From: Escherichia coli | GTDB taxonomy: Bacteria; Pseudomonadota; Gammaproteobacteria; Enterobacterales; Enterobacteriaceae | Length of the DNA stretch: 64,000 nt | Assembly: GCF_001677475.2 (NCBI RefSeq) | Contig: NZ_CP012498.1 | Direction: 5' to 3' (one strand) | Shown: one piece after another, positions 56,027-59,000 of the stretch | How positions within the stretch are numbered: position 1 is the first letter of the stretch | Layout of the letters: each line of letters starts with the position of its first letter | Made by a program: the position numbers

Positions 56027-59000
56027 TAAATGTCAGGCTCCGTTATACACAGCCAGTCTGCAGCCATGGTACCGGCAGTGTATTCTGCCGGACAGTCTCC
56101 ACAACTTCCTGTTGTCATTGATTATCCGGCAGCTCTGGCACTTCGCCAGATGTCGATGGTCCATGATGAACTGCCGAAATATCTGCTGGCTCTGGAAGTG
56201 AGTGCCCTGCTCCATTACGTCCGGATCTGCGCCGCAAGATGCTGCTGGCCACACTGTGGAACACCGGTGCGCGCATTAATGAAGCACTGGCGCTGACACG
56301 GGGGGATTTTTCGCTCGTGCCTCCGTATCCGTTTGTGCAGCTTGCGACCCTGAAACAACGGACCGAAAAGACAGCCAGAACGGCAGGAAGATCGCCGGCC
56401 GGTAAGCAGACTCACCGGCTGGTTCCGCTCTCTGATGCCTGGTACGTCAGCCAGCCGCAGACGATGGTGGCAACACTGAAAATCCCCATGGAGCGGCGTA
56501 ACCGTCGCACCGGCAGAACAGAGAAAGTGAGGATCTGGGAAGTGACGGACAGAACAGTCAGGACCTGGATTGGGGAAGCGGTTGCCGCCGCTGCTGCTGA
56601 CGGTGTGACGTTCTCTGTTCCTGTCACACCACATACATTCCGCCACTCCTATGCGATGCATATGCTGTATGCCGGTATTCCACTGAAGGTCCTGCAGAGC
56701 CTGATGGGGCATAAGTCCATCAGCTCAACAGAGGTCTACACGAAGGTGTTTGCACTGGATGTGGCTGTACGGCACCGGGTGCAGTTTGCGATGCCTGAGT
56801 CCGATGCAGTGTCTATGCTCAAAAGAATTCCTTAAGTTCTGACTTTTTTAAATCCCTTTCGGATATCTCATGGATATATTATCGGTATTTCATATTCTGT
56901 TGACATGCCGGACTGGTATAGAGTAAAAAAACATCTGTTGAGTACCTCTTGGATATCCGAAAGATGTCTTTGGGGTTCTTTATGGGTATTACATTTGGAT
57001 TCTGGAGATACACTATGCCTGTTATTGCTAATACGCATCCCAAAGGTGGTGTGGGTAAGACAACTTCATCCGTAAACATTGTTGGTGAAATGAAGTCTGA
57101 TACAGTTGATCTGGATACTCATACTGGGCTTTCTATCATTCTGGGGCTGAGACCTGAAGGAAAAGAAATTTCCGTGAAAGTACCCAAAACAGTGGATGAG
57201 TTAATCGAAATTATGACTCCCTACAAGAACAGCGATAAGACGTTACTTATTGACTGTGGGGGATTTGACTCAGATCTTACCCGTACTGCGATTGCCTTTG
57301 CAGACTGCGTTATTGTCCCTTCAAAAGATTCCCTGACTGAGCGTATTGGTTTGATGCATTTTGATGGAGTACTGGACGAAATCAGCTCTATCATGGGGAC
57401 CGATATAATTGCTCACCTGTATCTCTGTAAAGTTAATCCTAACAAGAAGAAATTCCCTAAGCTTGATGCAATCCTGCCATCGTTCAAACATCTGAAGCTG
57501 ATGAAGAGCCGCATTTCTGCTCGTGCAGAATTTGAGGATGTCATTGAGACTGGGATGGGAATCACTGAGTCTGTTCATGGGCGCTATTCGGCAGGAGGTA
57601 AGGAAGTTATTGCCCTGATCGAAGAAATCAATCATCTGATTGAAAATAATAAACAGTAAGGTATATCAATTGGGTATCCATATAGTATCCTTTAGGCTTT
57701 TAATAGATATCTTTTGAGTATCTAACAAACATCCTGGGTTATCTCATGAGCAAAGCGAAATTTAGTGCACAGGCTGAAAAACTGAAAAACCTGGTGGATT
57801 CTGCCAGATTACAAACTTCTTCTTCTGCCGTAATAGCAACAGTCCCGTCTCAGCCAAATGAAGGTGCAGAGGAAGTTTCAGGTCGTCCCGTAGCTGCCAG
57901 GACGAAGGCTAAGAATCTTAAGGCCATACCGCTGTCGTATTTTGAAGCTCATGCGGAACTTAAAGCGACCAGTAAAACATCTCTGGATTTTAGCTCATAT
58001 ATTATTGAGGCTATAAGAGAGAAGCTTGAACGTGACGGTGCAATAGGTCAATAATTCATAGGATACCTTTAGGGTATCTGATGGGTGTCTTTTAAATGCG
58101 TTATGGGGATTCTTCAGGTACCTAAAGAGTCCTCATTAGACATCTTTCTGTATATGGTGACATGATTCGTCACCGCTTTCCTTTCCTCTCAGTTTCACCA
58201 TTTCATTCCTTTTCCCTTAACCTGAACCATGATGTCAAAGATGTTTTTATATTGCATTTATGTATCACATATAACCTTCATAATATTTTTGTATCTATGA
58301 TTTCCTCTGGTCTTAAAGTTGTGTGTACAATATACATGCAATTTATCGTGTTTTTATGTTGCATTTGTCCTTTCAGAAAGACCATTTTTTCATTATAATT
58401 GAATATAAATTGTATGTATGAAGTATGTTTGTTTTTTCTATTTGTTTATGAGCAACGGAGACTGGTTATGAAAATCTTTATTGATGATGGTTCTACCAAC
58501 ATTAAACTTGCCTGGTTGGAGGATGGTGACGTGAAAACGCTAATCAGCCCTAACAGCTTTAAACCGGAATGGTCTTTTAGTTTACTGGATGATGCTGCCC
58601 CGGCTAATTACGAGATCGACGGCGAGAAGTTTTCATTTGATCCATTAAGTGCTGATGCTGTCGTAACGACTGAAACACGCTATCAGTACAGTGATGTGAA
58701 TGTTGTGGCCATTCAGCATGCGCTACAGCAGACCGGCCTGAAAGCGCAGCCTGTTGATGTCATCGTCACATTGCCGATCTCTGAATACCTTGACGCCAAC
58801 AATCAGAAAAATAAGCAAAACATTGAAAGAAAGAAAAAAAATGTGATGCGTGAAGTACGGGTGCAGGGGAGTGATGCATTTGTTATTCGCAGTGTTTCCG
58901 TTCTTCCTGAAAGTATTCCCGCTGGTTTCAGTGTTCTTGCGGGGCTTGAGGATGATGAATCCCTTTTGATCGTAGATCTCGGTGGTACAACTCTTGATGT

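Follow-up and report, generated by a model that had tools for sequence, protein, structure and literature searches.

A probable inherited resD pseudogene on a large Escherichia coli virulence plasmid

The resD gene of a large Escherichia coli plasmid is broken by the loss of one base from a CCC run at codon 65, and we put the probability that this is a genuine, inherited pseudogene at about 0.9. In F-like ccdA-ccdB-resD maintenance modules, the product of resD is a small tyrosine recombinase, which acts at rfsF to resolve multimers of the plasmid. The DNA analysed here is a stretch of 64 kb (the window), part of a virulence plasmid with ehxCABD, gentisate-pathway genes and many IS elements. 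It is 99.0–99.3% identical to IncFIA/IncFIB plasmids of ~215–242 kb (pCFSAN004179G, pCFSAN004180G, AP025742 and others), whose hosts are hybrid STEC/ETEC E. coli and Escherichia cryptic clade I.

A missing cytosine splits resD into two reading frames

Positions 56030–56835 (+ strand) hold a gene of the F-plasmid D-protein/ResD family of tyrosine recombinases, 806 nt long compared with 807 nt in relatives. It stands third in its module, after an intact antitoxin gene, ccdA (55504–55722, +; Pfam CcdA), which aligns to an annotated ccdA over 219/219 nt with no gaps, and an intact toxin gene, ccdB (55724–56029, +), which is 100% identical to that of pCFSAN004179G and whose stop codon abuts the resD start (TAAATG). 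The first-pass annotation had described resD as split by a single-base deletion, and alignment to three relatives bears this out: a single gap separates the window (ACGT-CCGGATCTG) from pCFSAN004179G, pCFSAN004180G and an IncK plasmid (ACGTCCCGGATCTG). The site was placed by alignment, an indel list and a script at 56221–56222 (+), in codon 65 (Pro) of ResD, where the window has CC for the ancestral CCC and reads GTCCGG in place of the GTCCCGG found in all close relatives. The deletion is the sole indel relative to pCFSAN004179G across the 4.7 kb from 55173 to 59882, and the sole frame-disrupting indel among 17 genes compared with that plasmid, the other 16 having no indel of any kind.

The 268-codon gene is divided by this loss into two open reading frames. 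ORF1 (56030–56296, +; 88 aa) consists of 64 native N-terminal ResD residues followed by 24 out-of-frame residues ending at a TGA, and has no Pfam match. ORF2 (56239–56835, +; 198 aa) starts at the internal Met71, is read at -1 with respect to ORF1 and retains the catalytic residues R82, H202, R205, H228 and Y237. The placement of the two halves in different frames had been recognized at the outset, and the repair proposed then, gtcccggatctg, does restore the frame; both it and the coordinates given with it were exact. With one C added, the gene encodes a 268-aa protein identical to F-plasmid ResD at 249/268 positions (93%; 19 differences) and differing at five residues from the closest intact allele. 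Like F ResD, the repaired protein has a Phage_integrase domain with the R, H-x-x-R, H and Y residues, and a search found 1,264 homologues at E ≤ 1e-10, with identities of 78–95% among the best of them. Homology to F ResD over the full length of the frame-restored protein, together with a ccdA-ccdB-resD order common to F, the IncK plasmid and pCFSAN004179G, identifies the family. What the locus does not offer is an uninterrupted frame giving a complete protein, and on the evidence of its sequence it is a pseudogene of the ResD family rather than a functional member.

The deletion recurs in independent assemblies

The earlier annotation had left room for a sequencing or assembly error, in which case the real plasmid would have CCC and an intact resD. 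An error would suit a one-nucleotide loss within a short homopolymer, and would also suit the absence of the deletion from all complete E. coli RefSeq and PLSDB records. The deletion allele occurs in none of the 3,129 E. coli RefSeq records and 3,488 PLSDB plasmid records that have the segment; the best full-length matches there are 98.6% identical, equivalent to one gap in 74 columns. Likewise, neither PLSDB nor the set of 5,426 complete E. coli RefSeq genomes has the exact allele, collections that do not include the window's own record and in which the closest plasmids are 99.0–99.3% identical. Since the best matches all show the 1-nt gap and none has the deletion, the in-frame gene is clearly ancestral.

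The same split gene is nevertheless present in many other assemblies. Exact-product look-ups found the 88-aa product in 31 assembly-index blocks and the 198-aa product in 27, with both ORF products present in at least 24 contigs of other assemblies (one NCBI assembly together with SRR, ERR and DRR runs). Ten loci were retrieved, two from GCA_036681075.1 (185-kb contig) and eight from six sequencing runs (SRR24416025, SRR7842148, SRR29091313, SRR3989528, ERR10434760 and DRR588742). The deletion is present in every one of them, and over 3.5–6.1 kb they align to the window without gaps and with 0–8 SNPs; CATTACGTCCGGATCTGCGCC is found in 10/10 and the CCC form in 0/10. This evidence consists of assemblies of independent runs, not raw reads, and a few SNPs separate some of the deletion-carrying assemblies from each other. 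Different runs and SNPs between assemblies argue that the deletion is a heritable allele of a plasmid clade and not an error in one assembly. Against an error stand also the recurrence of the same deletion with its flanking substitutions in at least 24 other contigs, deposited through NCBI, ENA and DDBJ, the length of the run, which is just 3 nt, and the lack of indels in the other 16 genes compared. An error is thus rejected as highly improbable, and that route can be regarded as closed.

Recoding and independent function of the fragments are improbable

The 130-nt overlap of the two frames (56167–56296) and the position of ORF2 at -1 make a -1 shift geometrically possible, and -1 ribosomal frameshifting or transcriptional slippage could in principle restore some full-length ResD. 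A scan found no X_XXY_YYZ slippery heptamer anywhere in ORF1, and so none in the overlap, no homopolymer of five or more nucleotides in the resD frameshift region, and no Shine-Dalgarno sequence before the ORF2 ATG, which is preceded by GCGCCGCAAG. A conserved frameshift architecture is likewise lacking. The homologues are single in-frame ORFs of ~260–269 aa, and the deletion is confined to one clade; the frameshift is derived, and more than 3,000 homologous records lack it, all being in frame. The gene has, in addition, gained changes at invariant positions. Recoding was rejected on these grounds as having a very slight chance of being correct, and bypass of the frameshift, which the first-pass annotation had allowed for, no longer offers an escape for the gene.

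The Pfam Phage_integrase profile (PF00589) matches residues 52–240 of the frame-restored protein with 66.8 bits, which places the break at codon 65 inside the catalytic domain. The residues R82, H202, R205, H228 and Y237, which 49/49 homologues share, are encoded downstream of the break and are all present in ORF2, which scores 60 bits against the same profile and is predicted by gene callers. ORF2 might accordingly be translated alone from Met71 as an active truncated recombinase, or ORF1 might keep a D-protein repressor or DNA-binding function. Several features make either outcome unlikely. ORF2 covers only profile positions 29–168, without the first ~28 positions of the catalytic domain and without the entire N-terminal 51 residues; its ATG lacks a preceding Shine-Dalgarno sequence and lies in the path of ribosomes translating ORF1, which read through it; and two of its residues, L143P and A247V, are changed at near-invariant positions.

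In the reading that we prefer, an inherited loss-of-function allele, the missing C shifts the frame at the level of the catalytic domain's first helices. Ribosomes that begin at the native ATG would make 64 native residues and a 24-residue nonsense tail, and the catalytic residues are left in a downstream ORF with neither a ribosome-binding site nor the N-terminal part of the domain. From the two products as predicted, we infer that no active ResD should be made from the split gene.

Further substitutions have accumulated in the resD allele

From its closest relative, the window's resD is separated by five non-synonymous changes and one synonymous change. Of the five, P55L, A97V, L143P and A247V fall on the window's branch. 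In an alignment of 49 homologue cluster representatives (78–94% identical), P55 is conserved in 49/49, L143 in 48/49 and A247 in 49/49, and position 97 is variable. The locus from DRR588742 has the deletion and still has the ancestral GCG (Ala97) at codon 97, so A97V arose after the frameshift; comparison of these alleles thus shows at least one further resD substitution postdating it. The non-synonymous excess in resD (5 vs. 1 synonymous) was not significant when set against the 16 neighbouring genes (32 vs. 41; Fisher p = 0.09–0.18). Since recent divergence leaves many non-synonymous differences everywhere, relaxed selection on resD, which is suggested, is not claimed from this test.

A one-armed rfsF-like core and an IS3-family insertion lie upstream of ccdA

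In plasmid F, the rfsF sites stand at the start of the RepFIA region (nt 45922), and oriV-1, ccdAB and resD come after them (PMC4398462); rfsF is among the sites built of 10–14-bp inverted repeats with a 6–8-bp spacer (PMC5587640). In F, nt 45922–45949 read AGATCCGAAA-ACCCCAAG-TTACGGATCT. The IncK plasmid has the same arms around the spacer ACCCCTGG, at the same relative position as the F core, and the two share the pattern AGATCCGAAA-N8-T[T/C]ACGGATCT. The assignment of this pattern as rfsF rests on the same two articles, both secondary sources, and on the conservation between F and IncK. In the window, an rfsF-like half-site at 53680–53696 (+) retains the spacer ACCCCAAG and right arm TTCCGGATC, upstream of ccdA as in F. 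The left arm of F and IncK, AGATCCGAAA, is replaced: the 10 nt to the left of the half-site are unrelated, and no complete rfsF-like core was found in the window. The same half-site occurs in pCFSAN004179G, with its left arm likewise replaced. If the half-core is rfsF, ResD in this plasmid family would be without a proper substrate, which would explain the repeated loss of resD.

A second conserved region, 55270–55310, is kept in the window (TTCCGGAAA...TCGGATC; CCGGAAA...TCGGATC) and could be a functional ResD site. A location of rfsF downstream of resD was considered and rejected, since F and the window are unrelated there and the literature puts rfsF upstream of ccdA.

Between the rfsF-like core and ccdA, in the oriV1-like region, lies an IS3-family element of 1414 bp (53759–55172, - strand) encoding a 166-aa HTH orfA and an rve orfB (Pfam HTH_28 and rve). 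It is bounded by terminal inverted repeats (TGATCTGCGCCCCAA / TGAAGTGCGCCCCAA) and by a 3-bp target duplication, GTT, at 53756–53758 and 55173–55175. The insertion point lies inside the counterpart of F's 19-nt inverted repeat (CAGCACAGCATGTAGTGCC / GGCACTATATGTTGTGTTG). pCFSAN004179G is continuous across this point, the two HSPs abutting at 34248–34251 of its retrieved segment. The Logan contigs begin within the element or just downstream of its end. In GCA_036681075.1 the element is at the same point, and what lies beyond it is not the DNA found in the window: there (JAQMUJ010000003.1, retrieved segment 1–518), a HEPN_RiboL-PSP-like gene replaces the ehxD/rfsF-like side. This difference indicates an IS-mediated rearrangement within the deletion clade.

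A sister lineage carries an independent frameshift, and relatives encode a second ResD-family protein

A separate single-base frameshift is found in plasmids of the pCFSAN004180G type, which have the same backbone as the window (98.7–99.3% identity). In pCFSAN004180G (NZ_CP012500.1), resD has an additional A after codon ~133 and is flagged "frameshifted" by RefSeq. This +A and the -C at codon 65 are independent events, which makes at least two inactivations of resD within the backbone. The lineages differ also in the rest of the module: ccdA and most of ccdB have been lost beside IS elements (IS3/IS21) in pCFSAN004180G-type plasmids, whereas ccdAB is intact in the window. Within the retrieved segment of NZ_CP012500.1 the gene occupies 1431–2238, and many bovine isolates (OkiPb series) match this resD allele at the same identity. 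Even the intact allele of pCFSAN004179G has a replacement, P198L, where 49/49 homologues have Pro; the site is four residues ahead of the H-x-x-R box.

The relatives encode, in addition, an intact 246-aa ResD paralogue, WP_001066958.1 (NZ_CP012501.1, 76623–77363). It belongs to the same family as the window's ResD and lies directly beside the RepFIB RepB (Rep3_N) initiator gene rather than ccdAB. The paralogue is 48% identical to the window's ResD over residues 58–243, shares the catalytic box VPVTPHTFRHSY, and is intact also in plasmids with a frameshifted resD, which makes it a candidate back-up multimer resolvase in the relatives. It lies outside the 64-kb window, and in the window itself a search for a back-up resolution function turned up neither another tyrosine or serine recombinase ORF (of at least 120 aa) nor a dif/cer/psi-like Xer site.

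ResD may be dispensable in this plasmid family

The one-armed rfsF-like core, the replacements at invariant ResD positions in every lineage and the independent inactivation in the sister lineage point, with less certainty than the frameshift itself, to a ResD that may already have been dispensable in this plasmid family. The deletion is inherited and defines a clade of large, closely related plasmids with ehx, and this clade has gone on to diversify; as it has also persisted, the loss of ResD is evidently tolerated. Multimer resolution may still be impaired, as the first-pass annotation had supposed. Stability would presumably be provided by two adjacent partition systems, by ccdAB killing and possibly by the relatives' RepFIB-adjacent paralogue. 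A broader and more tentative proposal, which we think has perhaps a modest chance of holding, is that ResD and rfsF have become obsolete as a unit in large ehx/ST-enterotoxin plasmids, the rfsF arm having been lost in a common ancestor, resD inactivated at least twice and resolution passed to the RepFIB paralogue. If true, these plasmids would illustrate in nature how redundancy can drive the loss of a resolution system where a multi-replicon plasmid has two paralogous ones.

In Cre/loxP and in Rsd/crs of the Salmonella virulence plasmids, one plasmid-encoded tyrosine recombinase converts dimers to monomers, and the logic of ResD is the same. The sites consist of a short inverted-repeat core with a 6–8-bp spacer (PMC5587640). 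In the window the gene for the enzyme is broken and only half a core is recognizable. Compared with F, the window differs in the frameshift at codon 65, in the missing left arm of the rfsF-like core and in the IS between this core and ccdA.

The window's resD is a gene in ordinary decay, with a well-known role in the maintenance of plasmids, and the case involves no new mechanism. Annotation pipelines routinely flag such pseudogenes, and "frameshifted pseudogene" is the label that fits the locus, rather than a 198-aa "integrase" or a pair of hypothetical ORFs. The deletion and the adjacent IS insertion together form a usable lineage marker for the plasmid clade. For plasmid-stability biology the interest is modest: sister lineages have inactivated the gene in two independent events, a hint that large multi-replicon virulence plasmids can do without ResD. 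The finding has little import beyond annotation and opens no new question.

Other features of the window

Two partition modules lie just downstream of resD. A ParA-family gene (57015–57659, +) starts a separate partition block and is followed by parM (58468–59448) and a parR-like gene (59441–59857); this ParA/ParM block is of the IncI/IncK type, whereas F has repE downstream of resD. The interval between resD and parA (56856–56963) contains a 12-nt perfect inverted repeat (CTTTCGGATATC / GATATCCGAAAG) with its halves 84 nt apart, as well as repeated TGGATAT motifs. The interval is conserved in the IncK and pCFSAN plasmids, is unrelated to F downstream of resD, and probably serves as a centromere-like site or as the operator/promoter of parA. 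Immediately beyond the parM/parR-like module, an impB/umuC-like gene (59859–60779, -) is broken into at least two ORFs and is another pseudogene; its pieces are 175 aa (ending in IMS_C positions 1–49) and 125 aa (IMS_C 61–107 and DUF4113).

Elsewhere in the window, 12629–17225 (-) holds a formate dehydrogenase-N-like operon encoding a cytochrome b561, a 4Fe-4S subunit and a 1016-aa molybdopterin subunit. E. coli FdnG has selenocysteine at an in-frame TGA position. The large subunit in the window is one uninterrupted ORF and so has no in-frame TGA at that position; it would be a Cys-type or other variant. The repeated segments 20406–21887, 42416–43902 and 24669–25122 each match the two copies of the sta1 (heat-stable enterotoxin) flanking regions in pCFSAN004179G, a pattern that suggests duplicated toxin-associated modules bordered by IS remnants.
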